Virus record (IMG/VR): IMGVR_UViG_637000261_000005
DNA length: 33,575 nucleotides
Reading direction: 5' to 3' (one strand)
Origin: a virus
Lineage: Duplodnaviria; Heunggongvirae; Uroviricota; Caudoviricetes
The stretch's first letter is position 1, and each line of letters opens with the position of its first letter. The translations under genes were made by a program, and so were the position numbers. Under the pieces are notes generated by a model. It had not been told where the DNA came from and searched no databases. It worked only from the letters and a program-made list of their open reading frames with translations. This document shows, piece after piece, positions 2,051 through 33,575 of the stretch.

Positions 2051-5000
2051 TTATTCTGATGTCACTCTTTGCGAGTGAGCTATTTTTAAATCAGCGTTTC
2101 CTTCAAATACTATATTCAACTCATAGTTAAGAGTTAGCTTGAATTTATCTGAGTCACTTTTGATATTCTCTGAAGTGACATTTACTAACTTATTATTATC
2201 ATATTCTCTAATAATTAATTTAGTGAAGTAGTTATCCTTTACCACAAGAGAAAATGGTTGATTAACAAATGGTAAGAAGTAAACCTTACGGGTACCGGAT
2301 TCAGTAGTTATGTTCATAGAGCCATCATCATTTTTTCTCATTAGTTCTCTGAGGTTGGGATTATCGAAAAGCATACGATTATATTGCTGAAAGATCTCTT
2401 TACTCATCACAAGAACCAGTTTGCCAGCCAAGTCAGCAGATGATTTTATGTGATCAATCAACATATTGAAATCTTCTATTACGGTATGTTGCGAACAGCC
2501 AGTGCTAAATAAATTTGAAAGTATTATTCTCTGGATGTCCTTGAGAATTAAGTCTGCTTGAATATCACCTTCATTGATATAAGGGATGGATTCTATTCCT
2601 TCGGCATACGGTTCTTTATCTATCTTAATAGATATCTTATGTTTTGTGAAACAATCGCTAGCCTGCTTAAAATCAATAGATTTGAAAAGTGAAAGAGGGA
2701 GCGTTTTCTTGATGCGTTTACGAAGATGTTCTGATGTTTTACGTGCAGTGCTATCTAGTCGATGTACATCTATGGCAGCATCCTGAAGTCTCATATCAAG
2801 ATCTTTCTTTAGCATGTTAATATGCTCTTGAAGCAACTTTCTTAAGTTTTCTTTTTTTGTTTGGAGATCGTCCAATGTTAAAGTCAGCTTGATTTTAGTG
2901 TATTCGATGGAGTTACAAATTTTTGATAATACTCCAATGAGTCGTTGCTTCTCACGATATGTTATATAGTTGTTTTCTATTGCTTCTTTTATTTCTTTTG
3001 ATACGCTATCGTTCTTTTTAGAAAAAATTAATAATAGCTGAACCCATGATTGTTCCATATCAATAAATCCACAGTCAAAAACATTACTGTAAACTCTGCC
3101 CATCACCATGTCTGTTTTATCATAGTCACGTAAACGCCTTGCTAAACTATTCATCCACCCATTGTGCTCCATATTTTCAGACCATGTCCACAGGCAGATT
3201 CTAATTAATATCTTGATTAGTTGGCTTGCATTATCAATTTCTTCAGTGGGAGTTTCATATCCACCGGTTTGGTCAATAAGTTTACCCTCTAAAATAAGTT
3301 TAATGTAATGTGTCATTAGTTTGTCAGAAGTATTGATTCTTGATGTCAGATAAAGACATGTGCATATACGCATGTCAGTCAACGCATTTATGATGGCAAT
3401 ATTGAACCACTCTCTGTCTGAATTGAAGTTTAGTTTTTTGGATATGAAAAAACCCGGGTTAAAAAGCTGGCCTTTGTAACTGTATTTTTCTACCGAATGG
3501 CTGTCAATATTCATTGAGTGCTGCCATCGGTTAATAAGATCGACGGCTGTATCAATAGTAGAAGGATCGCGAGTCTGTGTTGCATCAATAATCATCGATG
3601 GAAGTTCTTGTAGTTGCGTTTTGCAAAATAATTCAAATAAATCTGAATTCTCTGTATTGCAGAAACGAAAGTTTATGCTTTCTTGATATTGCTCCCAAAC
3701 AGTGATATAGGTTCTTAATATACGATTATAACGTGAACGAAGCGAGGCATTTAAGAGTGATTGGTTGTTTCGGAACCATTCTGTTAATATTGACCATTGT
3801 GAACGAGTAATTCCCATATAGATACAAAGTTCATTGCTGATAAGATGTTTTCTATTATTGATAATACGCACTCCGCTCCAAAGACATAATTCAAAAAATC
3901 TTTCAGAAAGATTAATTTTATCCATGGAATTATTTGATATTTTATAAACTTCATCTGAAAACTCATATTGAAAACTCCGTTCAAATAATTCTGTAGTGAT
4001 CAGTAAGAAGTTATTGTTGGTATTATCATCTTGAAAAAAATACAAATCGCAGAGATTATTAAAGTTATTAATTAATGCAGAGATAGCATTGTCAAAACTA
4101 ATGAGATCAGAATCCCGCAGATACATATACGTATCTGCTGTTATAGCCTGCATTGTAAGACTTACGGAAAAATCTCCTCCTTTAATCGGAGCCCTATAAA
4201 AACATTGCTTAAGTATTTTTATTAATAAGCTGTCTGGTTTGATATTTTTAACGCTAAAAAGTATCTTACCCGTGGATTCTGTTTCTTTTGTACGATTATC
4301 ACCAATGACAAATGACGCAAAATGATTCTTCTTTTTTAGTTGGTAATTAATAAGATTAAGAGTAAGTTGAAAAGGACGGTGATATAAACTTAACTCATCT
4401 TCCTTAGAATAACTGCTAGCCACAGATATGTATTCTCCTTTGTAATCGGCTTGCGTGATTTCTAAATTTGAATAGTTATGTTTTTGATAGATAGGGTATA
4501 ACCTAAGCTTGGCTGAGATTTTGTTACAAATATGGGGCATTACTATTTCGAAGGCAATGTATCGCTTTATAATTATTTGCCGTTTTACATCATCAAGAAT
4601 TTCAAGACTCACGATAAAGAACCAAATAGAAAGAACTATGTTTATCAAAAGCCATAATATGCTGATTAGACAAGCTATACCATAAAGATAACTTCCAAAG
4701 ACAGTTTTAATTAGTACACTGAGAAGTATAAATCCTGATAAGAAAAGCCCGCTGAGTCCAGCAAGCATGAATCCTGAGTAACGCTGATAAGCAGTTTGGG
4801 CTATTTTTCTATCTGCCTTTTTTTGGAATAAGACACTTACTAAACCTATAACAAGGGGGTATACAATACCAATAATTGTCAATTGGCCACTTAAAATGGT
4901 TGTTTGCCATTCGGTTAATGAATGCCTAAACGGGAAATAATGTAAAAGATTATTTTTTATAAATAATTCGTTTAAATATCCAACATAAAGTAGTACAAAT

Positions 5001-5170
5001 GAAAAAGCTGATATGCAAAGTACTGATTTAACCGGTGAGGATGTTAATCTTATGATGTTTTTTTCAATAAAATTCCATTTTAAATTCGAATAAAATGGAT
5101 TTTTAACCATTTTATTACGAACATAGTTCTTTGCTAAAATCTCTGTTGCACTTAAAAATTGTCCAATCAT
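2051..5170 (-). CDS. Large (1039 aa) membrane-anchored protein of unknown function; candidate phage-defence/abortive-infection cargo
   Basis: A single uninterrupted ORF in a strongly AT-rich island. Four to five hydrophobic helices lie in about residues 48-200 (VLCISAFSFVLLYVGYL; LTIIGIVYPLVIGLVSVLF; FMLAGLSGLFLSGFILLSVLI; YGIACLISILWLLINIVLSIWFFIVSL), then about 840 aa of N/K/I-rich soluble sequence. I see no Walker A, RT, HNH or other recognisable motif. It has the same orientation as D and ogr. Confidence 0.7.
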   Translation of the reverse strand: MIGQFLSATEILAKNYVRNKMVKNPFYSNLKWNFIEKNIIRLTSSPVKSVLCISAFSFVLLYVGYLNELFIKNNLLHYFPFRHSLTEWQTTILSGQLTIIGIVYPLVIGLVSVLFQKKADRKIAQTAYQRYSGFMLAGLSGLFLSGFILLSVLIKTVFGSYLYGIACLISILWLLINIVLSIWFFIVSLEILDDVKRQIIIKRYIAFEIVMPHICNKISAKLRLYPIYQKHNYSNLEITQADYKGEYISVASSYSKEDELSLYHRPFQLTLNLINYQLKKKNHFASFVIGDNRTKETESTGKILFSVKNIKPDSLLIKILKQCFYRAPIKGGDFSVSLTMQAITADTYMYLRDSDLISFDNAISALINNFNNLCDLYFFQDDNTNNNFLLITTELFERSFQYEFSDEVYKISNNSMDKINLSERFFELCLWSGVRIINNRKHLISNELCIYMGITRSQWSILTEWFRNNQSLLNASLRSRYNRILRTYITVWEQYQESINFRFCNTENSDLFELFCKTQLQELPSMIIDATQTRDPSTIDTAVDLINRWQHSMNIDSHSVEKYSYKGQLFNPGFFISKKLNFNSDREWFNIAIINALTDMRICTCLYLTSRINTSDKLMTHYIKLILEGKLIDQTGGYETPTEEIDNASQLIKILIRICLWTWSENMEHNGWMNSLARRLRDYDKTDMVMGRVYSNVFDCGFIDMEQSWVQLLLIFSKKNDSVSKEIKEAIENNYITYREKQRLIGVLSKICNSIEYTKIKLTLTLDDLQTKKENLRKLLQEHINMLKKDLDMRLQDAAIDVHRLDSTARKTSEHLRKRIKKTLPLSLFKSIDFKQASDCFTKHKISIKIDKEPYAEGIESIPYINEGDIQADLILKDIQRIILSNLFSTGCSQHTVIEDFNMLIDHIKSSADLAGKLVLVMSKEIFQQYNRMLFDNPNLRELMRKNDDGSMNITTESGTRKVYFLPFVNQPFSLVVKDNYFTKLIIREYDNNKLVNVTSENIKSDSDKFKLTLNYELNIVFEGNADLKIAHSQRVTSE

Positions 5171-5418: not shown

Positions 5419-6528
5419 TTATTCTGTTTCTGCTATCCATTCCGGGATTTTTGCTTCAAGTTCAAGCTGCGTGGTAAAGCCGCTGTTATCAATGGTGTGC
5501 TCGGCTTTTGCAATAGTCCAGTCCTGATAATCAATCTCGCTTTTAAAGCCTGTCACTGTGCCATGCATTTCGGGATAGAGTTCTGCACGACCACGCGCCA
5601 GCGTGATGGAGAATGATGCGGCTCCGCGTTGTAGCTGCTGCCACTTTGCCGCCGCTGCGCGTCTTGCTGCCTGCTCGTTCTGATAAGTCTTGCGTAACAC
5701 AAACACGTTGCCTTCCGCACCTTCCATATAGTCGCCTTCCCGACTGCTGCTTTTCTCCTTTTTGGGTTTTGGCGGTTTGCGGCGTTTCACGCTGACTTTT
5801 TTCTTTTTCCCGTAATTAAGATCAAGCCAGTAGGCGCGTACCCCCGTATACGCCTCGCGGTCAGCAATGCGGAACTGATGGCGATCGCCGCTGCTGCGTG
5901 TAATGGCGAACGAGGGCAACGGCTGCCCCTGTGCGTTCACGCCACCACCTGGCATGATGAATAACAGATTGCCGCTTTTTACCGTGGCGATTGCTCCCAG
6001 CATTTCCGCCATGCGCGTAAGAAAGGACATGTCGCTTTCTTCGGTCTGGTCGGCGTGGTCGATTTCGATATCCATCAGCATTTCGCTGATTTGCGGTTTC
6101 AGACCGTACCGATGAGTGATGGCGGATACCACACGCTCAACGGTCACATCATGCCAGGACACCTCACGTTTAACGTTAAATTCATCCCGAAAATCTGCGC
6201 TTCTGGCTGAAACAGTCAGCCTGTCCGGCGGTCCTTCGTGAGCGATTTCATCAACAATGTAAGTGCCTTTTTCTGTCAGCGGTTCCCCTTTCCAGCCAAT
6301 GAGAACCGTCAGACGCGCGCCCCGTGGCGGTAGCTGCAACTGACCATCCGCATCATCCAGCGTGATGGTGAGCTGGTCCGCCTCAAATCCCCGGTTGTCG
6401 GTCAGTTACAGGCTCATCAGGCGCTCCGCCACGCCTGACAGCGTTTTACCCTCCGAGAGAATATCAAAATCCGGCATTTTCACGGGGGCCGTGCCCTGAC
6501 TGAGCAATTGCATGGTGGTGTCGGTCAT
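5419..6528 (-). pseudogene. D: P2 gpD-like tail protein, interrupted by an in-frame TAA at 6406-6408
   Basis: The N-terminal ORF (MTDTTMQLLSQGTAPVKMPDFDILSEGKTLSGVAERLMSL*) and the 306-aa ORF are in the same frame. They are separated only by TAA (plus strand TTA at 6406-6408), and the reading frame is open on both sides. RBS GGGAGGGA lies before the ATG at 6528. The C-terminal part resembles P2 D (…VLIGWKGEPL…GTYIVDEI…). Confidence 0.8.
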
Positions 6529-8924: not shown

Positions 8925-11768
8925 GTGAGCGGGCGGCACTTCGTAGCGGGAATGCAGACAATGAAGACTCTTGATATCCGGGTCGCTTTCAGCGCCGTTG
9001 ACAGGCTGACCCGGCCTGCCGAAAACGCCCGCCGCCTGATGGGGCAGTTTGGTGACTCCATCCAGCGAACGCAGGGGGCGATCAAAAATCTCGAGCGTCA
9101 GGCGCGATCATTTGAGCGCGCCCGTGACGCTGTCAGTAAAGCGGATGCTGGCATCGTGAAAGCACGACGCCAGCTTAACGCCCTTAATCAGTTACAACGC
9201 ACGGGTACAGTGCTCAGCGAAAAACAACAAAAGCTGATGCAGCAGTTAAGCACCCGGCTTGAACGCCTGAATGAATCGCGCACACGGGAAATTCAGAAAA
9301 TGCGGGAGCTTGGCGGAGAGCTGAAACGCCACGGCATTTCCCTGACAGGTAGCGATAACACCATCCAGCAGGCCATCAGACGCACCGAACAGTACAACAA
9401 CCAGCTTGAACGCGAACGGCAGGCGCTTGCGCGTGTAACACGGGCGCGTGAGCGGTATTCGCGCGCGCAGGAAACAGCGGGAAAACTGAAAACAGGTGGT
9501 GCGCTGGCAATTGGTGCGGCAGCGGCGGGCGGCTATGCTGCCGGGCGTTTTTTGCAGCCTGCGATCGGGTTCGGCAAAGAGATGTCCCGCGTTCAGGCAC
9601 TGACGCGAATCGACCAGAACAGCCCGCAGTTTAAGGCGCTGCGTGAGCAGGCGTTAAAACTTGGCTCTGAAACGCAGTTCACCGCAGGCGATGCCGCCAG
9701 TGGACAGGCATTTCTTGCAATGGCTGGCTTTACACCACAGGCCATTCAGGCTGCGCTCCCTGGCGTACTGAGCATGGCAACGGCTGGCGGTATGGACCTC
9801 GGTGAGACGGCGGATATTGGCTCAAATATTCTGACGCAGTTCGGTCTTTCTGCTGACCAGATGGACCGGGTCGGCGACACACTCACCGCAGCGTTTACCC
9901 GTACCAACACTGACCTTCGCGCACTGGGTGAAACCATGAAATATGCAGGTCCGGTGGCGGGTAAGCTGGGAATATCTCTGGAGCAGGCCGCAGCGATGGC
10001 GGGCGTGCTGGCGAATATGGGTATCAGGGGGAGTGATGCTGGTACGGCAATGCGTGCCAGCCTGGCTCGTCTGGCATCACCGCCAAAGGCGGCAGCAGAG
10101 GCGCTGAAAGAGCTTGGCGTGTCTGTCTCGGATGCCGGGGGCAAAATGCGCCCGATGGAGGATGTGCTGGCTGACCTTTATAAAGCTACCCGCAAATACG
10201 GGGAAGTTGACCGGGTATCGTTCTTTAAGGACATTGCCGGAGAAGAGGCTTTCACATCATTTATGGCCCTCGTTGATGCGGCAGGTGACGGCTCCTTACC
10301 CAAACTGAGAAAAGAACTTGAAGGCGCGCGCGGTGAGGCTGAACGCACGGCAAAGGTTATGGCCAACAACCTTGACGGCGATCTGAAATCACTCAGCAGT
10401 GCATGGGAAGGGTTGCGCATCCGCATTGCAGATCTGATTGACGGTCCGCTGCGTTCTGTCACGCAGTGGCTCACGCGTGTGGTATCAAAGGTGACGGCGC
10501 TGGCGCAGGCCCATCCCGCACTGACGCGCCAGCTACTGATTGCAGGCGGTGCATTGCTGGCAATGACTGCAACGGTTGGCTCGTTGTCGCTGGCTATTGG
10601 TGTGCTTGCTGGCCCGCTGGCAAAACTGCGTCTTGGTTTTTCCCTCCTGACCGGATCAATGAATGCTGTCAGGGTTCTGCCAGCACTATGGGGAATGGTG
10701 ACGGGTTCCGTTTCTTTACTGGGAGGCGCTATCGGGGCGTTGTTCAGTCCGGTTGGTCTTATCGTGGCTGCGCTTGCCGGAGCTGCCGTTCTTATCTGGA
10801 AATACTGGGATCCCATCAGGGCATTTTTTGCCGGGGTGTTCAGCGGGATTATGGAAAGGCTGACCCCGTTGCGCGAAACCTTTGAACGGTTTGGTCCTGT
10901 TTTTGACGCAATCGGGAGTGGGATCAGCCAGGTGTTTAACTGGTTTAAATCGCTGCTGTCACCGATGGAGTCCAGCAAGGAAACTCTGGATAAATGTACC
11001 AGTGCTGGCGAGATATTCGGTAACGTTCTTGGCGGTGCGTTACAACTTGTTCTGACACCTGCAAAAATGTTGCTGGATACGCTGGCGTGGATACTTGAAA
11101 AGCTTGGTGTGCTTCCGGATGAAGCGGAAAGGGCGCGCAAGAAAATCGAAGACGCACAGCGTGCGGCCATTCTTCAGGACAAGGTTGCCTTGCTTCAGGG
11201 GGATCTGGCGAAAATCAATCCGCCGAAGCCTGTGGAAAATGGCAATGGCACCGGAGGTGATAACCCCAAAGACAATAAACCGCTCACAGACAGCAATACC
11301 GGTACGCTGCGCAGACTCAGCAAAATTGCTGATAACACAGGTAAGCTGGTTGAGGAGACGAAAAAACGCATTGGCCCCGGCGATATTGTCTTTAAAAACC
11401 TGCCCCGAGCACTTGCTGTTCGTGGGGAGTGGCAGGAGCGGAAGATTGCGCAGGTCAGTAAGCCTGCCCCCGCAATTAATATCACACCCGTGGTTCCGGC
11501 TCCGCTGCCTCCGGCGCTGGTCCCTGTTGTTGCAGCCAGCTCCCGCCCGGTGGCGGAGGCTATACGATCTCCAGTGGCATCAGTTCCTGTAACTTCCCGT
11601 AACCGGGAGCCTGTTGCCTTCGGATTTGGTGGTGAAATTCATGTTCATCTGCATAACGTTGTTACGCAGAATCCCCGCGAACTGGCGAAACTGGTCGGTG
11701 AAATGGTCAGGGCAGAAATGGAACGGCGCGCCCGTGCCGGGCGTGGCTGTTTTTACGATAAAGATTGA
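8925..11768 (+). CDS. T: Tail tape measure protein (P2 gpT-like)
   Basis: 947 aa, GTG start directly after the E' stop. It is coiled-coil and Ala/Gly-rich with hydrophobic central segments, as is typical of tape measure proteins. Confidence 0.9.
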   Translation: MSGRHFVAGMQTMKTLDIRVAFSAVDRLTRPAENARRLMGQFGDSIQRTQGAIKNLERQARSFERARDAVSKADAGIVKARRQLNALNQLQRTGTVLSEKQQKLMQQLSTRLERLNESRTREIQKMRELGGELKRHGISLTGSDNTIQQAIRRTEQYNNQLERERQALARVTRARERYSRAQETAGKLKTGGALAIGAAAAGGYAAGRFLQPAIGFGKEMSRVQALTRIDQNSPQFKALREQALKLGSETQFTAGDAASGQAFLAMAGFTPQAIQAALPGVLSMATAGGMDLGETADIGSNILTQFGLSADQMDRVGDTLTAAFTRTNTDLRALGETMKYAGPVAGKLGISLEQAAAMAGVLANMGIRGSDAGTAMRASLARLASPPKAAAEALKELGVSVSDAGGKMRPMEDVLADLYKATRKYGEVDRVSFFKDIAGEEAFTSFMALVDAAGDGSLPKLRKELEGARGEAERTAKVMANNLDGDLKSLSSAWEGLRIRIADLIDGPLRSVTQWLTRVVSKVTALAQAHPALTRQLLIAGGALLAMTATVGSLSLAIGVLAGPLAKLRLGFSLLTGSMNAVRVLPALWGMVTGSVSLLGGAIGALFSPVGLIVAALAGAAVLIWKYWDPIRAFFAGVFSGIMERLTPLRETFERFGPVFDAIGSGISQVFNWFKSLLSPMESSKETLDKCTSAGEIFGNVLGGALQLVLTPAKMLLDTLAWILEKLGVLPDEAERARKKIEDAQRAAILQDKVALLQGDLAKINPPKPVENGNGTGGDNPKDNKPLTDSNTGTLRRLSKIADNTGKLVEETKKRIGPGDIVFKNLPRALAVRGEWQERKIAQVSKPAPAINITPVVPAPLPPALVPVVAASSRPVAEAIRSPVASVPVTSRNREPVAFGFGGEIHVHLHNVVTQNPRELAKLVGEMVRAEMERRARAGRGCFYDKD

Positions 11769-11780
11769 GGAGTCATGGCC

Positions 11781-12269
11781 ATGATGATGATCTACGGCAT
11801 GTTTGTTTTTGAGCTGCGCACGCTGCCGCATCAGCAGTTACAGCAAAACAAAAGCTGGCGGCATGTGAAAAATGAACGCGTTAACCGTTCAGCAAGCTGG
11901 CAGTATATCGGTGCAGGTGATGATCGCATCGTTCTTTCTGGTGTGCTTTATCCTGAAATTACAGGTGGCGAAGTGTCGCTGTCGCTGCTGACTACGCAGG
12001 CGTATACAGGACGACCCTGGCCTTTGATTGATGGCGTCGGGCAGATTTACGGCATGTATGTCCTGACTGAAACGAATACGACCCGCTCCGAGTTTGATCG
12101 CTACGGTAAGGCGAAAAAGATAGAATTTTCACTGACTCTTGAACGCTGTGATGAGGATTTGCGGGAGCGCCTGCAATCCTCATCGTTCAGTGATATGCTG
12201 TCCGGCTTCAAAGATAAGGTGACATCATCTCTTAACAGCGCGGCCAGTTCAGTTAAAGGGCTGTTCTGA
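11781..12269 (+). CDS. U: Tail protein (P2 gpU-like)
   Basis: MMMIYGMFVFELRTLPHQQLQQNKSWRH… resembles P2 U. RBS GAGGAG is 8 nt before the ATG at 11781 (the ORF track starts at 11775). Confidence 0.85.
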   Translation: MMMIYGMFVFELRTLPHQQLQQNKSWRHVKNERVNRSASWQYIGAGDDRIVLSGVLYPEITGGEVSLSLLTTQAYTGRPWPLIDGVGQIYGMYVLTETNTTRSEFDRYGKAKKIEFSLTLERCDEDLRERLQSSSFSDMLSGFKDKVTSSLNSAASSVKGLF

Positions 12270-12277
12270 TTTAACAC

Positions 12278-12308
12278 AAAAACCGCTAATGGTCAGATTA
12301 GCGGTTTT
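12278..12308. terminator. Bidirectional rho-independent terminator between the convergent U and invertase genes
   Basis: Perfect palindrome AAAACCGCTAAT-GGTCAG-ATTAGCGGTTTT flanked by T-rich runs on both strands. The invertase stop codon (12298-12300) lies within the right arm. Confidence 0.5.
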
Positions 12309-12897
12309 CATTTTCCTGAGTCTGCCCGGTTGTTTCTTCAGTCTGTATATCGCCTACAGGGTGATAACGATAAATCGTCGATGTGCCAATGCCGTAAATT
12401 ATTGCCAGTTGTTTTCTGTCGTGCCCGTTTTTGATTAGCCTTGCTATTTGCTCATGCTGTTCTTTTGTCAGCTTCGGTCGACGTCCGCCTGTGCGCCCCC
12501 TTGCGCGCGCTGCCGCCAGCCCGGCCAGTGTACGTTCAACAATTAATTCACGTTCCATTTCAGCCAGGGCACCCATCACGTGGAAGAAAAAACGCCCCAT
12601 TGGAGAAGATGTGTCTATGCTGTCGGTCAGACTGCGAAAATTAATCCCTCGCTCCCGTAGTTCCCCGACGAGAGAAATCAGATGTTTCATGCTTCGCCCG
12701 AGGCGATCCAGTTTCCAGACAACCAGCGTGTCACCTTTTTGAAGGCGCTTTAAAGCGCGTTTTAATCCCGGTCGGTCTGTCTTTGTCCCGCTTAATTTAT
12801 CTTCAAATATTTGTTCACATCCTGCACAAACAAGAGCGTTTTGTTGCAGGTCTGTATTCTGGTCATTTGTTGATACCCTTACATAGCCAATCAGCAC
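12298..12897 (-). CDS. pin: Serine DNA invertase of the Gin/Pin/Cin/Hin family
   Basis: (M)LIGYVRVSTNDQNTDLQQNALVCAGCEQIFEDKLSGTKTDRPGLKRALKRLQKGDTLVVWKLDRLGRSMKHLISLVGELRERGINFRSLTDSIDTSSPMGRFFFHVMGALAEMERELIVERT… is near-identical in pattern to Gin/Pin. The likely start is GTG at 12897 with RBS GGGAGA; the ORF track extends to a TTG at 12915. Confidence 0.9.
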   Translation of the reverse strand: MLIGYVRVSTNDQNTDLQQNALVCAGCEQIFEDKLSGTKTDRPGLKRALKRLQKGDTLVVWKLDRLGRSMKHLISLVGELRERGINFRSLTDSIDTSSPMGRFFFHVMGALAEMERELIVERTLAGLAAARARGRTGGRRPKLTKEQHEQIARLIKNGHDRKQLAIIYGIGTSTIYRYHPVGDIQTEETTGQTQENENR

Positions 12898-12951
12898 ACT
12901 GAATCTCCCGTCCAAAAGCGCAAATCATGCCATGCAGGCCAGAAACGGCCA

Positions 12952-12977
12952 TTATTTAAAACCTCGGTTTACGAGAA
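12952..12977. other. gix/hix-like 26-bp crossover site (right end of invertible segment)
   Basis: TTATTTAAAACC-TC-GGTTTACGAGAA compared with the gix consensus TTATCCAAAACC-TC-GGTTTACAGGAA. It lies at the start of the alternative fibre coding segment. Confidence 0.7.
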
Positions 12978-13673
12978 CTCGGCACAAGCGGGGAGAAAAT
13001 ACCGTTACTCAGTACAGCGAATACCTGGACCAATCGACAAACATTCAGCGGTGGCCTTTCTGGGGAACTGTCCGGCAATGCCGCTACTGCAACAAAGCTG
13101 AAAACAGCACGAAAAATTGCTGGAGTTGGTTTTGATGGTTCTAGCGATATCTCAATTAGTGCCAAAAATGTCAATGCATTTGCACTCCGACAAACAGGTA
13201 ATACTGTTAATGGTGATACATCCGTTGGATGGAATTGGGATAGTGGTGCATATAACGCCCTGATTGGTGGTGCATCTGCATTAATTCTTCACTTTAATAT
13301 AAATGCTGGTAGCTGTCCTGCCGTACAATTCCGTGTGAATTATAAAAATGGTGGCATTTCCTACAGGTCGGCTCGTGATGGTTATGGGGTTGAATTACGT
13401 TGGTCAGATTTCTATACCACGACACGAAAACCTTCAGCGGGAGATGTTGGTGCATATACGCGGGCAGAATGTAACTCAATGTTTATTACAGGTATTCGCC
13501 TTGGCGGTCTGTCATCTGTTCAGACATGGAATGGTCCCGGCTGGTCTGACAGGTCAGGTTATGTCGTTACGGGTTCAGTTAACGGAAACCGTGATGAATT
13601 AATTGATACAACACAGGCAAGGCCAATTCAGTATTGCATTAATGGGACGTGGTATAACGCGGGGAGTATTTAA
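12978..13673 (+). CDS. Alternative tail-fibre C-terminal segment (promoterless, expressed only after inversion)
   Basis: The open frame begins inside the gix site with no start codon (…NLGLRELGTSGEKIPLLSTANTWTNRQTFSGGLSGELSGNAATATKLKTARKIAGVGFDGSSDISISAKNVNAF…QYCINGTWYNAGSI*). This is the classic variable receptor-binding-domain pattern, and the end parallels the H C-terminus (…[14 protein letters not shown]). Confidence 0.7.
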   Translation, partial: LGTSGEKIPLLSTANTWTNRQTFSGGLSGELSGNAATATKLKTARKIAGVGFDGSSDISISAKNVNAFALRQTGNTVNGDTSVGWNWDSGAYNALIGGASALILHFNINAGSCPAVQFRVNYKNGGISYRSARDGYGVELRWSDFYTTTRKPSAGDVGAYTRAECNSMFITGIRLGGLSSVQTWNGPGWSDRSGYVVTGSVNGNRDELIDTTQARPIQYCINGTWYNAGSI

Positions 13674-13675
13674 CG

Positions 13676-14209
13676 ATGATGCACTTAAAAAACATTACTG
13701 CTGGCAACCCTAAAACAAAAGAGCAATACCAGCTAACAAAGCAATTTAACATCAAATGGCTTTATTCAGATGATGGAAAAAACTGGTATGAGGAACAAAA
13801 GAATTTCCAGCCAGACACTTTGAAAATGGTCTATTACCATAACGGCGTTATTATTTGTATTGAAAAGGATGTTTCAGCAATTAATCCGGAAGGCGCAAGC
13901 GTCGTTGAATTACCTGATATTACAGCAAATCGCCGGGCTGATATTTCGGGGAAATGGTTGTTCAAAGATGGCGTAGTGATAAAGCGAACTTATACCGAGG
14001 AAGAGCAGAGGCAACAAGCGGAAAATGAAAAGCAAAGCCTGTTGCAACTTGTCAGGGATAAAACCCAGCTATGGGACTCACAGCTACGGCTGGGCATCAT
14101 TTCCGACGAGAATAAACAAAAATTAACCGAGTGGATGCTCTATGCGCAGAAAGTCGAATCTACAGACACCTCCAGCCTGCCAGTAACGTTTCCCGAACAA
14201 CCAGAATGA
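13676..14209 (+). CDS. Tail fibre assembly protein, alternative copy (Tfa')
   Basis: [40 protein letters not shown]… shares N- and C-terminal motifs (…[18 protein letters not shown]…) with the G-like gene on the other strand. It starts 3 bp after the alternative fibre stop. Confidence 0.85.
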   Translation: MMHLKNITAGNPKTKEQYQLTKQFNIKWLYSDDGKNWYEEQKNFQPDTLKMVYYHNGVIICIEKDVSAINPEGASVVELPDITANRRADISGKWLFKDGVVIKRTYTEEEQRQQAENEKQSLLQLVRDKTQLWDSQLRLGIISDENKQKLTEWMLYAQKVESTDTSSLPVTFPEQPE

Positions 14210-14237
14210 GAGAAGGCCCGATATTGGGCCTTAATTT

Positions 14238-14766
14238 TTACTCAGGCTTTTGTGGCCATTCGGGATTTGCTGTATCCACACGGCTGACCAGAACGCTGTA
14301 GCGTTCCCATGACTCCAGTCGTGTGCGTTCCTCATCCATCGCCATATTCAGCCTGACAGCGCGTTCCAGTGGCTGAATAACGCTTTCAGCTTCAGAAAGC
14401 AACGCGACCTTTTGTGATTCGGCCTGTTGTTGCTGTTCGTCTGCTGTATAAATCCGCTTAACCACAGTTCCGTCCTTAAACATCCACTTCCCTGAATCAT
14501 CGGCACGACGATTGGCTGTTATATCTGGAATCTCAACGACACTAAAGCCTTCGGGATTAAGTGTTGGGGCATCTTTGGTTATGGCAACAATAATATTATT
14601 TTCGTCGTATACAATCTTTATGGTGTCGTCCTGAAAGTTATTTACTTCCTCATACCAGTTTTTACCGTCTTCGGACCATAACCAGATAACATCAAAATTC
14701 TTTGTTAGCTGATATTGTTCTTTTGTTTTTGGATTTCCGGACTTAATATTTTTTAATATGCTGCAT
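14238..14766 (-). pseudogene. G: Tail fibre assembly protein (P2 gpG-like) with a frame break in an A-run at the N-terminus
   Basis: The expected start ATG CAG CAT ATT AAA lies 4 nt after the H stop, but reads MQHIKKY* because of an A6 run (plus strand T6 at about 14749-14754). With A5 it would read [41 protein letters not shown]…, which matches P2 G. The long ORF in the track instead uses an upstream ATG overlapping H. Confidence 0.75.
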
Positions 14767-14769
14767 AAT

Positions 14770-16920
14770 TTACACCTGTGCGACGTTATACCATGTGCCA
14801 TTGATGTATTTTTGTATTGGTCTGAAGATGGCTTCATCATCGCCATCTACTTCACCAATGATTCTTAATCCGGTAATTGCGTGTCCGGCTTTTTCATAAC
14901 GACCACCACGCGCCATCAATTGAACAACACGCGTACCCAGGCGAACATCTTTTACATAGCGTGAATCAAAATTCCCCCAGTTGCTGGGCTGTATCTGACC
15001 GTTAACAGAAAATATTACCGAGTTATCTGTATTTCGCTGGCTATAGAAATGCCATCCTGCCTCATTGCCTAACTCTGCAACTACTGGACGGGTTGAAGCA
15101 CCCCATAAATTAAACGTTGCATTCTTTGTGGAGTTGTTGGAGCTGGATAGCGTGAATTTTTTACCATCCCCGGCCTGAATATTTTTAAAAGCAATAGCCA
15201 CTCCATTCTGAAAGCGGAATACACGCTGACTATTAGCATAAACATCCAGAATACCGTCTCCATTCTGTTTAAATCCGGTGTCATTATCACCAAGAACAAT
15301 AGAGCTACCACCTAACGCATTCGTCGAACCAACTCCAAGACTGCCATTAATGACAGCATTAACAAGAATATTTAGTGCATCCCATTTCAGCGTCATCAGG
15401 TCTTTTGTTGTGGTGCTCTGGCGGCTTCTCCATTTGAAATATTCATTGCCGTTGTCGCCTGTTTCAAACCACATGTATGAATCAGTGTCACCATCGGCAT
15501 CATTTTTAAATCCAATCTTCGCCCAGTCAGTATTTCGAATCCAGGCAAGGATTGAGTCATTTTCAAAAGTAAGCCCACCGGACAAGGTATCGCCATTTTT
15601 TTGCACGGCGTTACCAGCCCTGTTTACCGTTTCCTGTAAACCGAGGTATTCGATAACGGCAGCAACGGTCGATTTCGCAAGAATATCCCGCCCGACTTTT
15701 GTCAGGGTTGCCAGGCTGGCGACATCATTCCCCGTAAAATACGGAAACCTGTCTGCCGCAGTAGCAAGCCCGGCCAGCGCCGTCAGGGTGGCATCTTTCG
15801 GTTGCTTACCCGCAAGCGCGTTAGTCATGGTGGTCGCAAAATTCGGGGCGTTTCCCAGCGCCGCCGCTAACTCGTTCAGCGTATTCAGTGCGTCAGGTGA
15901 CGAATCTACAAGGGCGGCAATCGCAGCCATAACGAAAGCCGTGCTTGCGATTTGGGTATTATTCGTTCCCTGTCGCGCAGCTGGCGTTGTTGGCGTTCCG
16001 GTCAGCGCAGGACTGTTTAAGGGCGCTTTCTTGTTCGTTTCATCCATTACCGCCTTAACCGCTTTCGATGTCGCGGCCAGTGTTTCAGACGTGCTGTTGG
16101 TGGCACTACTGAGCTGGACTATCCCTTTTTGTGCCGTCGTGGCGTCCTGAGCGGTATATTTTGCGTTAGCAAGGTCATACGCGGCCTTTACTGCTTTCGG
16201 CGTTGCAGCCTGCGTTTCAGACGTGCTGTTGGTGGCGCTACTGAGCTGGACAAGGCCTTTTCGCGTCGTGCTGGCATCCTGCGCAGTATATTTACCGTTA
16301 GCAAGATCATACGCGGCCTTTACTGCTTTCGGCGTTGCAGCCTGCGTTTCAGACACGCTGTTAGTGGCGCTACTGAGTTGAACAAAGCCTTTTGCGGTCA
16401 GCGAGGCGTCCGGGTGACGTCGTGACTGTTCATGCTCTTTCAGTTTGTCATCCACGTAATCCACTGTGGCCATCACCATGGTGTTGTCCACGGTAAGCGC
16501 CACGGTGGCAGTGCTGGATACGGTCAGAATGGTGCGAAATGTTTGTGCACGACCGGACCCTTCGGCAACGGCTGGCTTGTAACTTTCGGCAGTATTTCCC
16601 ACCGCGATTAAATCGCCGTGCTCATCAAATACACCAATTTCCCGGATCCAGAATCCGCCCGTTTCAGGAGGAATAACCAGCTCCGCAATAATGCGGTTCT
16701 GATGTGTTGCGTCCAGGATGACGCGATTAACAGTATGTCGCCACACCTCATGCACCAGACGGGTCTGCTTACTGTCTGGTGTGGGCAACGTGCCGCCACC
16801 GTCGCCCACGGCCATATGAGTCAGGCGGACAGGCTTACCATCTGGCGCGGCTACCTGAGCTAATTTTTTTGCACCCGTATCGGTGATAATGGTTTTAAAT
16901 TTTCGTGTTGTGGTACTCAT
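14770..16920 (-). CDS. H: Tail fibre protein (P2 gpH-like). The constant N-terminal part lies outside the invertible segment and the current C-terminal part inside it.
   Basis: 716 aa; the N-terminus is conserved with P2 H. It contains three tandem 44-aa repeats and a gix site at codons 423-430. Confidence 0.9.
15631..15656. other. gix/hix-like 26-bp crossover site inside H (left end of invertible segment)
   Basis: Plus strand TTCCTGTAAACC-GA-GGTATTCGATAA; the reverse complement TTATCGAATACC-TC-GGTTTACAGGAA matches gix at 23/26. It is in inverted orientation relative to the 12952-12977 site and encodes H residues IEYLGLQE. Confidence 0.7.
15997..16392 (-). repeat. About three tandem 132-bp (44-aa) in-frame repeats within H
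   Basis: KG[FLI][20 protein letters not shown](AYDLAN.KYTAQDA) is repeated at H residues about 177-220, 221-264 and 265-308. The matching direct repeats are visible in the nucleotide sequence. Confidence 0.6.
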
Positions 16921-16922
16921 GC

Positions 16923-17453
16923 TTAATCGCCTGGATAAATGGTAATAACTTCACCGTCATAAGTTGCCGCCGCTGCGAAAATATCCCCCGGAATTTCCTG
17001 AATGATATTCAGCCCTGTCATGTGGCGGCTGACCGGGCGGGCATCAGCAATCAACCGCTCCATTTCCAGATACATTTCCTCCGTCACGCCACTGTCCAGC
17101 GTGCCGACTTCAACGGTAAATGTTCCCGGTTCTCCGCCGAACTCCCACCACTCAGACACGCGAATGAGGTATCCCAGCGGCTCAATGGCCCGGCGCAGTG
17201 CGCTGATGGTCCCTTTGTGTCGGTGTATCAGCCATGCATCACGAATAACCTGTCGCTTTGTCTCTTCCGGCCAGTTGCGATCCCAGCGGTCAACGGAAAA
17301 CGCCCAGGCGAGATAAGGCAGCAGATGCACCGGGCAGGTGTCCGGCGACCACAGCGTGTTGAGGTCTACCGGAATGTCTGTAATGCGTGTTCCGACGGCT
17401 TCGGCACAACGCATGAAATTGCTGGCTGATGGTGGTAACAACGAATTACTCAT
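16923..17453 (-). CDS. I: Baseplate protein (P2 gpI-like)
   Basis: MSNSLLPPSASNFMRCAEAVGTRITDIPVDLNTLWSPDTCP… The start ATG overlaps the J stop (ATGAGTAA). Confidence 0.85.
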   Translation of the reverse strand: MSNSLLPPSASNFMRCAEAVGTRITDIPVDLNTLWSPDTCPVHLLPYLAWAFSVDRWDRNWPEETKRQVIRDAWLIHRHKGTISALRRAIEPLGYLIRVSEWWEFGGEPGTFTVEVGTLDSGVTEEMYLEMERLIADARPVSRHMTGLNIIQEIPGDIFAAAATYDGEVITIYPGD

Positions 17454-18342
17454 TGCGTCCACCTTCGCTGATGGTGAATGACTCACAGCGCGCCGCCTGT
17501 ATGTCGCTGATGGCCATATTCTGTGTGGGTTCGATTATCTCCACGCGTTGCACACCGTGCACATGCAGTGCGGCAGCAATGGCGGACAACGCCACGTCCT
17601 GACCGATAAGCCCCTGCTCAGCCAGCCACTTCCTGAACGACGATTCAGCCGCGGCCAGAATAGGTTCGGATTCCGGGCCGGGGTAAAAGTACAGTTTTGC
17701 ATTCAGCCGCCATGTCACGATTCTGGCACTCTGTACGGTCAGGCGGTCGGCCACCGGGCGGGTATCCTCTGCATTCAGAACGGCGCGAACGGTATTAAGC
17801 AACGCCTCCGTTGCTGTGCCGTCGCCCTCAGTGGACAGGATGGAAACCGTCACGTTGGCCGGAGACGGGCTGATGGCCCGCGCATCGCGTACCAGACCGC
17901 TGGCGCTGCGTGCAAAATACTCGTATGCACCTGACGGGCCAGCAACACTCAGACCGTCATATGCCCGTTGCGCCCGTAGTCTCAGCGAGGTGTCACTTTC
18001 CATCACTGCATCGGTGGTATCCGTTGCCGGAGTGATAACCAGGCGCTTTGTGTTCATATTGCCCGCGAGGTTGTCCAGGTCTGTCCCGGCGCTGTGGCTT
18101 AGCATGCAGGCGCGTGCACCCTCATTGACCCGCTGGCGTAACAGCATTTCACGAAACGACATGGTTTGAGCGATAACGTTAAGGGGTTCCGATTCCAGCT
18201 CCAGCGCGGCGGAAACGGCTTCACGCTGTTCGGCGGGATAGGACGCAATCATCATGGCCTTTGTGTCAGCCAGAATTGCCTCAAAGTCAGGCTCCGCGAT
18301 GATGGCGGGTTCCGGTAACTGTGAAAGGTCAACGGCAGGCAT
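17446..18342 (-). CDS. J: Baseplate assembly protein (P2 gpJ-like)
   Basis: 298 aa, in the conserved W-J-I order. Confidence 0.9.
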   Translation of the reverse strand: MPAVDLSQLPEPAIIAEPDFEAILADTKAMMIASYPAEQREAVSAALELESEPLNVIAQTMSFREMLLRQRVNEGARACMLSHSAGTDLDNLAGNMNTKRLVITPATDTTDAVMESDTSLRLRAQRAYDGLSVAGPSGAYEYFARSASGLVRDARAISPSPANVTVSILSTEGDGTATEALLNTVRAVLNAEDTRPVADRLTVQSARIVTWRLNAKLYFYPGPESEPILAAAESSFRKWLAEQGLIGQDVALSAIAAALHVHGVQRVEIIEPTQNMAISDIQAARCESFTISEGGRNE

Positions 18343-28562: not shown

Positions 28563-28589
28563 TTGTGCAAATTTGTGCACTATTGTGCA
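28563..28589. repeat. Three TTGTGCA motifs at exact 10-bp phasing; a fourth copy at 28491-28497
   Basis: AATTGTGCAAATTTGTGCACTATTGTGCAG, followed by the inverted repeat GGGCGAT-N8-ATCGCCC. This looks like a protein-binding array in the cos-proximal non-coding region. Confidence 0.4.
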
Positions 28590-28628
28590 GCAGGGCGATG
28601 TGCGATTATCGCCCTGGTTTGAGGGGGA

Positions 28629-29219
28629 TCAGGTGTTATTTTTATCTGTCGTCAGTGGGCTAAACCATCCACAATTTACATCGCATGACTGATGCGTTCT
28701 GTCCTCGTGTTTCTCCTGCCACAATGCTTTTCCGCCAGCCTTTATGATGGCTCTTTCAACATCCCGCTCGTATCGCAAGGGCTGAAATACGTCATTAATG
28801 AAATATTCGCTTATGTCCGGAAGCGATACTGCAAAATTATTTGTTTGTTGCGCCGTCCTGCTATGCAGCAAAGCGGCATGCTTTAATGCGTCCTGTGCTT
28901 TCTGGAATTTAAGTGCATAGTCAGTGGCGATTTTTTCCAGTTCAGCGATTCGGTTGTCTTTGGTTTCCAGCCAATCAAGTAGCGCCAATACTTCAGGATC
29001 CCCGACATCCAACACTGTTACGCGTGATTTTTCATAATGTTCGTCAGCAAGAGTTCGGCCAATTTTGAAATCTCCATCATCACCATAACCGGAGCAGGCA
29101 TAAACAACCTGTGCTCCAGATATTCGCTGAATTGACATTTCCTCGCCGCAAATAGGGCATTTCGGTACTGGCACAGGTGAATAACGTTCACGTAATGCCT
29201 GATAGTTGATTTCGCTCAT
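28629..29219 (-). CDS. Hypothetical 196-aa protein with an N-terminal CxxC…C zinc-ribbon-like motif, distal gene of the par operon
   Basis: MSEINYQALRERYSPVPVPKCPICGEEMSIQRISGAQVVYACSGYG… RBS AAGGAGA. No family recognised. Confidence 0.6.
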   Translation of the reverse strand: MSEINYQALRERYSPVPVPKCPICGEEMSIQRISGAQVVYACSGYGDDGDFKIGRTLADEHYEKSRVTVLDVGDPEVLALLDWLETKDNRIAELEKIATDYALKFQKAQDALKHAALLHSRTAQQTNNFAVSLPDISEYFINDVFQPLRYERDVERAIIKAGGKALWQEKHEDRTHQSCDVNCGWFSPLTTDKNNT

Positions 29220-29282
29220 TAAGTCGTTCTCCTTGTTTATGTTCTGAGGTGGAGAGCAGGGCGAACTCGCCCTGATGTTGTG

Positions 29283-29594
29283 TTATTCAGGAAATAACGC
29301 CCGGATATTTCCGGCCATCTGACTGGTTATCTGTGCGGTTGATACTGGCTGTGATGCGGGGCGTTCTGTCCTGGTTTGTGTCACTGATAACGCTTCATCA
29401 CCAGCCCATGCAGCCAGTCGATAAGCCTCTGCCGGATTCATTTTCAGAAGTGCCAGCCCGGCCAGAAAAGCCACGCGTTGGCCGCTTTTGCGGGCTTCTG
29501 GTGTAAGGCTGTCCAGCCAGGCGCATGCTTCTCCTTCGTTCTTGACGGCGGTGGGCTTCAGATAGAAACTTATCCGTCTGGTTGGAGTCGTCAT
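29283..29594 (-). CDS. parR: ParR/StbB-like plasmid partition adaptor (ribbon-helix-helix)
   Basis: MTTPTRRISFYLKPTAVKNEGEACAWLDSLTPEARKSGQRVAFLAGLALL aligns with R100 StbB …RRTIAFKLNPDVNQTDKIVCDTLDSIPQGERSRLNRAALTAGLAL. RBS AGGAGT. It starts 5 bp after the parM stop. Confidence 0.7.
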   Translation of the reverse strand: MTTPTRRISFYLKPTAVKNEGEACAWLDSLTPEARKSGQRVAFLAGLALLKMNPAEAYRLAAWAGDEALSVTQTRTERPASQPVSTAQITSQMAGNIRALFPE

Positions 29595-29598
29595 TGGT

Positions 29599-30204
29599 TT
29601 ACTCCTTGTCCATTGCGTACAGCCCATTAACCAGAGCAAACTGTGGCACCCCGTCCGCGATGAAAGTCGCATTAACTCCGCAGGCTTCGCGGATAGCGGG
29701 TGCCACAATCTCCGCCCCTCCACCGACAACCATCACCCGCCCGTAACCCGAAAAAACCGCCAGCGCGCGGATCACGCGTTGTTTCAGTGTTTCTTCCTTT
29801 TCACGAATTACCGCCATCAGGCTGGCGTAATGCGCGTCATTGTGGATGTGCTGGCGCAGCCAGGCTTCATCATGGCGATGTTCGATAATGGTATTGGCGA
29901 TGTGGTGACTGGTGCGCATACCGTTAGTGGCCATCACCGACAGTACGGCATCGGCCATCAGAGAAACGCCCACGTGTGGATCGCAAAACACCTGGCTGAT
30001 ACCTGCCAGTTGCCCCTGAACCTTTGCCACATCCAGCGTGGTTCCGCCCAAATCCACAATCAGCAGGGATTCAAACGGACTCATGTCAGCCAGTGCCTTA
30101 AAGCCAGCCGGAATGGATTCAGGCATAACCTGTACGTTACGGATAGTGAATGCTTCGCCGTTCTGGTACTCCACCGGGCGCATGACGTTCGCTTTTTTGC
30201 GGTT
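29599..30204 (-). pseudogene. parM: ParM/StbA actin-like partition ATPase, 5'-truncated by IS911 (roughly the C-terminal 200 aa remain)
   Basis: …[72 protein letters not shown]…VMVVGGGAEIV… aligns with R100 StbA …[37 protein letters not shown]…[16 protein letters not shown]…VMVIGGGAELI…. The MLTTS start in the ORF track lies inside the IS911 terminal repeat. Confidence 0.8.
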
Positions 30205-30212
30205 TGAAGTGG

Positions 30213-31381
<1,169 letters not shown>

Positions 31382-31453
31382 TGGAGCACCTGTGTTGTTC
31401 TGAGGTGAGCATATCACCTCTGTTCAGGTGGCCAAATTCAGTGTGCCACTTCA

Positions 31454-31719
31454 AACCGAAGAACACGGCGGTGCGGAGTCCGGAGAGTAACGGAATAGCA
31501 GAGAGCTTCGTGAAAACGATAAAGCGTGACTACATCAGTATCATGCCCAAACCAGACGGGTTAACGGCAGCAAAGAACCTTGCAGAGGCGTTCGAGCATT
31601 ATAACGAATGGCATCCGCATAGTGCGCTGGGTTATCACTCGCCACGGGAATATCTGCGGCAGCGGGCTTGTAATGGGTTAAGTGATAACAGATGTCTGGA
31701 AATATAGGGGCAAATCCAC
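31454..31719 (+). mobile_element. IS2: IS2 3' fragment (about 266 bp, part of insD plus the right inverted repeat), truncated by the IS911 insertion and deletion
   Basis: …[26 protein letters not shown]…LSDNRCLEI* is identical in pattern to the insD C-terminus in the full copy at 1447-1719. It ends GGGGCAAATCCA at 31719. Confidence 0.85.
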
Positions 31720-31917
31720 TGCGGCACAGATCAGCTCGGAAAGTTCGTTAAGTGCATCCAGATCATCAGCGTAAAAAGCCACGTCATACAGACTTCGGAT
31801 TGCTCTGGTCAATGAGTCACGGGCCGCACGTTCAGCATGAGCGCCTGATGCACTTAAGCGAAAATAAAAACGCTCAAGTGCTTTGTTAATGAGAGTTTTA
31901 TATTCTTTGCCCATCAC
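31720..31917 (-). pseudogene. Hypothetical ORF truncated at its 3' end by the IS2 fragment (66 native codons)
   Basis: MMGKEYKTLINKALERFYFRLSASGAHAERAARDSLTRAIRSLYDVAFYADDLDALNELSELICAAV, then reads into the IS2 terminal repeat. It may be a remnant of the P2 early region. Confidence 0.3.
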
Positions 31918-31925
31918 AACGCCCT

Positions 31926-32126
31926 TTAATCTGCTTTCTGTATTTCAGCTTCTGAATCCATACAAATAATTTCGATATAGGGTTCATCGCCATTAACCTG
32001 GCGTGCCTTTTCAGCTTCGCTAATGATTTCTTGTACGGTCTGGTACGGAAGTTCCACAAGCAGTCGCGTGCCGTTCAGATAAACGTAAGTGGCTTCGTCG
32101 GCTCCGTTTTTACCCGCCGGAGTCAC
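31926..32126 (-). pseudogene. Hypothetical ORF whose 5' end abuts or continues into IS629
   Basis: 66 aa from a GTG start exactly at the IS629 boundary; the frame stays open about 10 codons into the IS. Probably a fragment. Confidence 0.25.
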
Positions 32127-32168
32127 TGAACCGCCCCGGGTTTCCTGGAGAGTGTTTTATCTGTGAAC

Positions 32169-33059
32169 TCAGGCTGCCAGATCATCGTTTCCGATGGAAG
32201 CATAATAAGCTTTTTCTGCTTCTGCCGGAGGGATGTGGCCCAGCCTTTCCAGCAATCGTCGATTATTATACCAGTCCACCCACGTGAGTGTGGCCAGTTC
32301 CACTTCTGCACGGTTTTTCCAGCTCTTACGGTGTATTACCTCCGCTTTGTAAAGACCATTGATGCTCTCCGCCATCGCGTTGTCATACGAGTCGCCTGTA
32401 CTTCCTGTTGATGCCAGTAATCCGGCTTCCTTAAGCCGCTGTGTGTAGGCCAGCGATACATACTGAGAACCTTTATCACTGTGATGGACCGTGCCGGACG
32501 GTCGACGGGCCCATAACGCCTGCTCCAGTGCATCCAGCACGAATGTCGTCTCCATGGACGATGAGACCCGCCACCCCACGATGTATCCGGCAAACACATC
32601 AATGATGAACGCCACATAGACGAAGCCCTGCCATGTGCTGACGTAAGTAAAATCAGCCACCCACAGCTGGTCAGGTCGTTCTGCCACGAACTGACGGTTT
32701 ACGCGGTCGCCTGCGGCAACGGCTTTCCGGCTGATGGTCGTACGGACCTTTTTACCCCGGAGAACACCGGCAAGTCCCATAACCGCCATGAGACGTGCCA
32801 CAGTGCATCTGGCCACTCTGATGCCTTCCCGTAACAACTGACGCCAGACTTTACGCACACCGTATACCTGATGATTCCCATCGTATACGCGCAGTATCTC
32901 TTTCTTCAGCCAGTCATCGCGCTGCGCACGGGCACTGCGTTTATCAGGATGATGTCGCTGTTGCTGACAGTGGTAATACGTTGACGGGGCAATATGTAGT
33001 TCACTGCATACCGGTCCGACCCCGTACAGCTTACGCAGCTTATCCAGCAGTGGCATCAC
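32169..33059 (-). CDS. IS629-like OrfB (DDE transposase)
   Basis: …[31 protein letters not shown]…[10 protein letters not shown]…[19 protein letters not shown]… is an IS3-family catalytic core. Confidence 0.8.
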
Positions 33060-33382
33060 TTTTTCCAGAGGCGGTCGAACTCCGCCTTCGCAAAATAAGC
33101 GGAAGCCTGGCGAAGGATATCGTTACTGCGGCGCAGTTCACGATTTTCACGTTCCAGCTCTTTCAGACGCTGACGTTCAGCGGTGGTGAGCCCGCCATCA
33201 CCGCCTCCGGTATCCCGCTCATGCTGGCGTACCCAGACACGCAGAGTCTCCGGTGTACAGCCAATCTTTGGGGCAATGGAACAAATTGCCGCCCACTGTG
33301 AGTCATATTCGCCCTGACTTTCCAGAACCATACGAATCGCCCTCTGACGGACTTCGGGGGAAAAACGAGTATTTTTAGTCAT
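33056..33382 (-). CDS. IS629-like OrfA
   Basis: 108-aa HTH/leucine-zipper transposase subunit; it overlaps orfB in the -1 frame. Confidence 0.8.
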
Positions 33383-33436
33383 CCTGTTTACCTCTTTCTC
33401 AGGGAGTTTAGTCTCCAGGATTCCCGGGGCGGTTCA

Positions 33437-33575
33437 CATGATGAACGGCGGCAATATTCTGACGCTCCAGAAAATTCTGGGGCACGCAAAGATTCAGACA
33501 ACGATGATTTATGCCCATCTTGCGCCGGATTACCTGCAGGATGCGGTGAGGTTTAATCCACTAGGAGGTGCTTAA
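33437..33575 (+). pseudogene. int: 3' fragment of a phage tyrosine integrase, truncated upstream by IS629
   Basis: …GGNILTLQKILGHAKIQTTMIYAHLAPDYLQDAVRFNPLGGA* is the conserved C-terminal catalytic tail (…LGH..I.TTM.YAHL…) of P2-type integrases. Its reading frame starts abruptly at the IS629 end. Confidence 0.7.

Follow-up and report, generated by a model that had tools for sequence, protein, structure and literature searches.

Invertible Fibre Segments of Mu and of P88-like Phages

The closest described counterpart of the locus presented here is the G segment of the transposable phage Mu, in which an invertase gene lies outside the segment and is followed by a recombination site, an S′v-type fibre cassette, the chaperone gene U′, a hairpin, the chaperone gene U, an Sv-type cassette and a second site within the fibre gene. 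The same order of parts is found in the tail module of IMG/VR record IMGVR_UViG_637000261_000005, a stretch of 33,575 nucleotides (nt) that was analysed at its full length (hereafter the window, to which coordinates refer unless another genome is named) and which belongs to the P88 group of P2-like prophages (genus Xuanwuvirus, Peduoviridae), a common type in Escherichia coli. We consider it very likely that this locus is a two-state inversion switch of the Din type (Gin/Hin/Cin/Pin), homologous to the Mu G segment and built into the tail fibre gene H of the P88-like prophage. The anatomy of the locus, a reading frame that is kept across the crossover, an intact invertase and the occurrence of both orientations in close relatives, with exchanged half-sites, all point to such a switch.

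At the DNA level the locus is 91–93% identical to Mu over the 5′ part of gin with the adjoining gix site, the S′ tip, U′ and U, whereas the constant part of the fibre and the currently expressed tip are of the P2 H type and not of the Mu S type (47% identity), the silent cassette bears no relation to Mu S′ in its proximal 70 amino acids, and the DNA-binding domain of the invertase belongs to a lineage other than that of Mu Gin. The segment is also shorter, 2.68 kilobases (kb) versus about 3.0 kb in Mu, and its host element is a P2-like phage and not a transposable one.

A locus of the same lineage lies in a prophage of E. coli O127:H6 strain E2348/69 (NC_011601.1, 1.879–1.900 megabases; fibre locus 1891695–1893703), and here inversion of the fibre segment during ordinary growth was demonstrated by paired-end sequencing and polymerase chain reaction (Goldberg et al. 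2014, PMC4272514). The modules that flank it are 95.6–97.8% identical in DNA to those of the window, and the gene order is that of the window, i.e., H, the invertible segment, a 600-nt recombinase gene and a convergent U. The E2348/69 locus, however, has three repeats, four states (a shufflon) and other fibre cassettes, whereas the window has two sites, and its repeat begins ACCTTGGTTTGGGGGAAGG, unlike the window sites.

The switch as such is already known, being of a textbook kind, annotated in several near-identical phage genomes, and with a homologous locus that has been shown to flip experimentally. The Xuanwuvirus relatives that were compared are P88_4B11, Citrobacter phage Shae_phiSM and the Escherichia phages P88, 503458 and 520873, and their annotated records each list a DNA invertase, two fibre open reading frames (ORFs) and two assembly proteins. 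P88_4B11 and Shae_phiSM carry the same locus in the same orientation as the window, with 98.4% and 97.2% identity, respectively, over 11700–17000. The papers found on P88 and on the Citrobacter phage phiSM do not analyse the switch, and one of them just mentions “a predicted DNA invertase” (PMC5285337, PMC6456863).

The Recombination Sites and the Segment between Them

The initial annotation, which was made from the letters of the window, had described two inverted gix-type sites of 26 base pairs (bp) at 12952–12977 and 15631–15656, and both were found as described; no further site of this kind occurs in the window. The invertase-proximal site (12952–12977, plus strand) reads TTATTTAAAACC-TC-GGTTTACGAGAA, with the crossover dinucleotide TC at 12964–12965. 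The second (15631–15656, minus strand) lies inside H, reads TTATCGAATACC-TC-GGTTTACAGGAA on the minus strand, encodes VIEYLGLQE, and has one mismatch to the search consensus. The sequence that had been quoted for this second site as top strand is in fact that of the minus strand, i.e., the reverse complement of the plus strand, which reads TTCCTGTAAACCGAGGTATTCGATAA. Its placement inside H stands, but the range of codons given for it (423–430) has to be corrected slightly, since the site starts within codon 422, at its second base, and runs through codon 430.

Both sites have the 12-2-12 form of an imperfect dyad and share the same central TC. When aligned with the Mu G region in the same orientation, they fall position for position on its two gix sites (TTATCCAAAACCTCGGTTTACAGGAA), from which each differs at 2–3 positions; an alignment to gix had been proposed as a check in the initial annotation. 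A search of the window with the gix consensus, in which up to 3 mismatches were allowed, returned exactly these two sites in opposite orientation, the number expected by chance being 0.00 (100 shuffles). The pair also forms the second-longest inverted repeat within 11500–17500, a 30-nt repeat that is 80% complementary. A third site, which would make the locus a shufflon, was considered and rejected, since the consensus search at 3 mismatches and a looser scan of the window for an AAACC-NN-GGTTT core gave two sites only, with no third credible one. The invertible segment that the two sites enclose extends over 12964–15644, i.e., 2,681 bp when measured from one central TC to the other, and it is this segment that is inverted in phage 503458.

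Both Orientations Occur in Related Phages

Phage 503458, another Xuanwuvirus, runs collinearly with the window as far as 12970 and again from 15636 (99.1–99.6% identity), and is inverted between these points. Its two sites read TTATTTAAAACC-TC-GGTTTGCAGGAA and TTATCGAATACC-TC-GGTTTACGAGAA, so that each consists of the outer half of one window site and the inner half of the other, which is the product expected of an exchange at the central TC. When the segment 12964–15644 was inverted in silico, residues 1–426 of H became joined in frame to 235 residues of the alternative cassette, the other site reading LGLRE in the same frame beyond the crossover. The 661-amino-acid fibre obtained in this way, H′, shows 98.6% identity along its entire length to that of 503458 (gp19, 661 amino acids). 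The simulation thereby reproduces what the initial annotation had predicted, namely that inversion would fuse H up to about residue 426 to an alternative tip and would swap the chaperone. The other cassette of 503458 is a different allele (51% identity over the tip).

The complete flipped junction is present in phages 503458 and 520873. Among complete E. coli genomes, the H junction in the state of the window was found in 358 and the flipped junction in 269 (coverage of at least 80% of the junction). The exact recombinant 26-mer occurs in 25 DNA stretches of IMG/VR (26 sites, 24 of which join the constant region of H to an S′-like cassette), and the parental 26-mer in 95 stretches.

The locus could conceivably do without a site-specific switch if the second cassette were static debris of a fibre-gene exchange and the differences in orientation had arisen by rare homologous recombination. 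The fibre genes are indeed mosaic, H being P2-like and the silent cassette and both chaperones being Mu-like, as this explanation would have it. The breakpoints in 503458, however, fall exactly at the 26-bp sites and show a reciprocal exchange of half-sites at the TC core, whereas the only sequence that they share is the 30-nt inverted repeat mentioned above, which is too short for repeated RecA-driven inversion. Both states are, moreover, frequent, and an intact invertase gene adjoins the segment. A static mosaic without site-specific inversion was rejected on the strength of the half-site exchange, and we regard its probability as next to negligible.

The Fibre Gene, Its Two C-Terminal Cassettes and Their Chaperones

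The constant N-terminus of the fibre lies outside the segment, and inside it are two opposed C-terminal cassettes, each with its own chaperone gene behind it. Gene H (14770–16920, minus strand) encodes a protein of 716 amino acids that matches the Pfam families Phage_tail_fib, Phage_fiber_2 and Gp34_trimer and has an end-to-end identity of 82% to P2 H. Residues 1–426 make up the constant part, and residues 427–716, encoded by the 3′ 870 nt, are the variable cassette that is currently expressed. The constant part also contains, at 16052–16411, three tandem 132-nt repeats (75–83% identical) that correspond to three Phage_fiber_2 repeats. In the orientation of the window, H is followed by a chaperone gene of the P2 G/Mu U type (14238–14766, minus strand), which matches Caudo_TAP on its body frame (expectation value E=3.4e-35) and shows 96.5% identity to Mu U and 91% to P2 G.

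The silent cassette (12960–13673, plus strand) contributes 235 amino acids after the crossover and has a weak match to gp37_C. Its frame is preceded by an in-frame TAA (12957–12959) and closed by a stop at 13671–13673; the first possible start codon lies at 13335, about 125 codons (12960–13334) being without one, and for this reason the cassette is not translatable alone. This agrees with the earlier description of a promoterless alternative fibre C-terminus that is followed by a second assembly gene, and the latter was located at 13676–14209 (plus strand; Caudo_TAP, E=4.9e-36), with 96.6% identity of its product to Mu U′. Over its distal 165 amino acids, the silent cassette shows 87% identity to the Mu S′ (G(−)) fibre tip. 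When the two tips of the window were compared with each other, 37% identity was obtained across the final ~70 amino acids, and we infer that they differ in receptor specificity and host range. A central hairpin (AAGGCCCGATATTGGGCCTT; 14213–14232), rich in G and C and with 8 pairs followed by AATTTTT, lies between the two convergent chaperone genes.

By homology with the described Din systems, dimers of the invertase would bind both 26-bp sites and, assisted by Fis at an enhancer within the 5′ part of their own gene, would come together in a synapse, and cleavage at the central TC via Ser9, followed by rotation and religation, would leave the 2,681-bp segment inverted. The promoter, the start codon and codons 1–426 of H would stay fixed outside the segment throughout. 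The sequenced orientation would thus yield the 716-amino-acid H with its P2 H-type tip, followed by the G/U-type chaperone, and the inverted one the 661-amino-acid H′ with a Mu S′-type tip, followed by the U′-type chaperone; in either orientation the transcript of the V operon would end at the central hairpin. Both fibre ORFs belong, with both chaperone genes, to a single phase-variable gene system, and the “partial” fibre ORF at 12960–13673 is a silent cassette and not a pseudogene. Assemblies of such prophages capture just one of two coexisting orientations, which affects the prediction of host range from tail-fibre sequence. Beyond correct annotation, the significance of the locus is small.

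The Invertase and Its Putative Enhancer

A Gin/Pin-family invertase had been placed directly outside the segment by the initial annotation, and an intact ORF for such a serine DNA invertase lies there (12298–12897, minus strand; 199 amino acids). It opens with a GTG codon, 54 bp away from the nearer site. It matches the Pfam domains Resolvase (E=3.1e-50) and HTH_7 (E=3.9e-13), and the Gin structures in the PDB (4m6f/3uj3) match it with E about 1e-99. Identity to Mu Gin is 84.5% overall and 98% in the catalytic domain, residues 1–113 differing from Gin at two positions only, R19Q and R39K. The counterparts of gamma-delta resolvase residues Y6, R8, S10, Q19, D36, R45, D67, R68 and R71 are all retained. 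In Gin, S9 forms the phosphoserine link and M114V is a Fis-independent mutant (PMC3575834); S9 and the wild-type M114 are both present in the window invertase, which, having M114, is not a Fis-independent variant. Residues K47, R48, K51, Q151, R154 and L155 of Hin are reported to be conserved only in invertases that depend on Fis and an enhancer (PMC3798978), and their equivalents in the window (K46, R47, K50, Q150, R153 and L154) are all present. The comparison suggests that the window switch would likewise depend on Fis and an enhancer.

A putative recombinational enhancer (sis) region was assigned by homology to 12678–12877 (minus strand). This stretch belongs to the 5′ part of the invertase gene and shares 195 of 200 bases with Mu gin (positions 101–300 from the gix site, on the sense strand of the invertase gene). 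The Mu sis enhancer, which lies in the 5′ part of gin (Kahmann et al. 1985), would fall within this matching stretch.

The 5′ two-thirds of the invertase gene together with the adjacent site (12541–12972) are 93% identical to Mu gin, and the 3′ third (12298–12540) gave no megablast match to Mu. The C-terminal DNA-binding domain has no likeness to Gin at the DNA level and is near-identical to that of the invertase of the E2348/69 prophage; the two proteins are 86% identical, the C-terminal halves being almost the same and most of the differences lying in the N-terminal half, where 21 of the first 100 residues differ. The gene is thus a mosaic with a recombination joint near codons 115–130, its Gin-like 5′ two-thirds having arrived along with the adjoining Mu-like segment.

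Most of the inversion might also be brought about in trans, by a different Din-family enzyme that the host encodes, such as e14 Pin or a Mu-like Gin. Din invertases can stand in for one another, and the enzyme of the window itself carries R19Q. E. coli genomes commonly carry several Din loci, E2348/69 having three (PMC4272514). The resident gene is nevertheless complete and has all the catalytic and Fis-contact residues, and catalysis in trans would in any case be compatible with a two-state switch of the kind proposed; that it is the main route of inversion we consider unlikely.

Lesions and the State of This Copy

The window was compared with the ETEC4088 prophage and P88_4B11, which served as reference for its lesions. 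The insertion sequence IS2, identified by full-length NCBIfam matches of a 121-amino-acid TnpA and a 301-amino-acid TnpB, lies at about 401–1719, where it interrupts the 3′ end of the ogr/Delta-like late-activator gene some 65 nt ahead of the stop codon, and is absent from the ETEC4088 prophage. D has an in-frame stop at codon 41 (6406–6408). The tube gene FII has 1-nt deletions at 8060 and 8249, with a remaining ORF that matches model positions 2–61 of 168; the terminase gene M has a 10-bp tandem duplication at 22487, near its 3′ end; and the capsid gene N has a 1-nt deletion at 24154, near its 5′ end, with a remaining ORF that matches model positions 51–323 of 326. Because of these lesions the prophage is probably cryptic. 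Some of the single-base insertions and deletions, those in homopolymer runs, could be sequencing errors, an explanation that is unlikely for the IS2 insertion and the nonsense substitution in D.

Several points weigh against a switch that is at work in this copy. The G-type chaperone gene has a 1-nt insertion of T at 14757, after codon 3, which reduces its product to MQHIKKY before a stop; if the insertion is real, the fibre of the current orientation is without a chaperone, while the silent U′-type chaperone is intact. With at least five other lesions besides that in the chaperone gene, the host-range output in virions has probably been lost here. The substitution R19Q in the invertase is private to the window, R being present in Gin and in the invertases of ETEC4088 and E2348/69. 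In Din-family enhancers the Fis sites are 48 bp apart, and a Fis-consensus scan gave no pair with this spacing, the strict pair being 37 bp apart and the loose pair 46 bp. Both orientations with the crossover at the site core are, furthermore, observed in relatives only, and it is from these that we infer flipping in this strain.

The initial annotation had named inactivating mutations in the invertase as a point against a switch; the ORF is intact and the catalytic residues are retained, and residue 19, which aligns with V20 of gamma-delta resolvase, is not catalytic. Of the host-range switch within a P2-like tail module that it had proposed, the Mu G-like exchange of tip and chaperone holds, but a working switch in this copy is doubtful in view of the frameshifted chaperone and the other lesions. 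The switch probably still can flip, but without changing the host range of a viable phage.

It is in this light that a frozen relic has to be weighed, i.e., a segment in a cryptic prophage that no longer flips, or flips without consequence, like the P segment of the defective e14. IS2 in ogr, the stop in D, the lesions in FII, N, M and G and the private R19Q of the invertase would all accord with it, and we take it seriously, giving it only a little less than an even chance. Against it stand an invertase ORF, two sites, two cassettes and a U′-type chaperone that are all intact, the doubt attached to several of the single-base changes in homopolymer runs, and the behaviour of the e14 P segment itself, which flips about 50:50 in a defective prophage (PMC4272514), so that cryptic does not imply frozen. 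A further possibility, that the invertase, the sites and the S′/U′-type cassette have been kept intact amid decay because the host still has a use for the invertase (e.g., in flipping other Din loci in trans) or for the fibre switch as part of a domesticated tail-like particle, seems to us very improbable.

Placement in the P2-like Genome and Neighbouring Regions

A prophage that lies beside ihfA in E. coli ETEC4088 is 99.6% identical to window 1720–28589. Read on the minus strand from high to low coordinates, the genes of the window run O N M L X, lysis genes, R S V W J I H G; FI, FII, E, T and U are on the plus strand, and D is on the minus strand to the left of FI. In P2 the genes from FI to D follow G on the same strand, whereas in the window the FI–U block is on the opposite strand, an arrangement that is common to all relatives examined. 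That the FI–U block might be a second invertible unit of the same invertase was considered and rejected, there being no gix-like site at its borders; the same orientation of the block in all relatives examined also speaks against it.

The switch had originally been said to sit where P2 carries Z/fun. In P2, which is without an invertase, the interval from G to the FI promoter is occupied by the cargo gene fun(Z), and the window switch resembles it in lying directly downstream of the fibre chaperone gene G. It does not, however, lie between G and the FI promoter, its far neighbour being, as in all P88-like relatives, the 3′ end of U on the opposite strand. To regard the element as an extension of the fibre genes is therefore more apt than to call it hotspot cargo. 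Between the convergent U and invertase genes there is a hairpin of 12 pairs (12279–12308; AAAACCGCTAAT-GGTCAG-ATTAGCGGTTTT), terminator-like on the plus strand, which overlaps the last codons of the invertase, has A and T runs on its flanks, and could stop both genes.

Between the ogr-like gene and D lies an ORF of 1039 amino acids (2051–5170, minus strand), which had no match in Pfam, NCBIfam or PADLOC. It is present in the ETEC4088 prophage, where the RefSeq label is “MFS transporter”, whereas in P88_4B11 no such gene separates D from the transcriptional-regulator gene; the ORF may be cargo of an unknown kind in a variable region of Xuanwuvirus. The right end of the window (28589–33575) diverges from the ETEC4088 prophage and matches other E. 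coli prophages with ParM-like and partition-protein genes. It also holds sequence that is repeated in thousands of E. coli records and is probably another insertion sequence.

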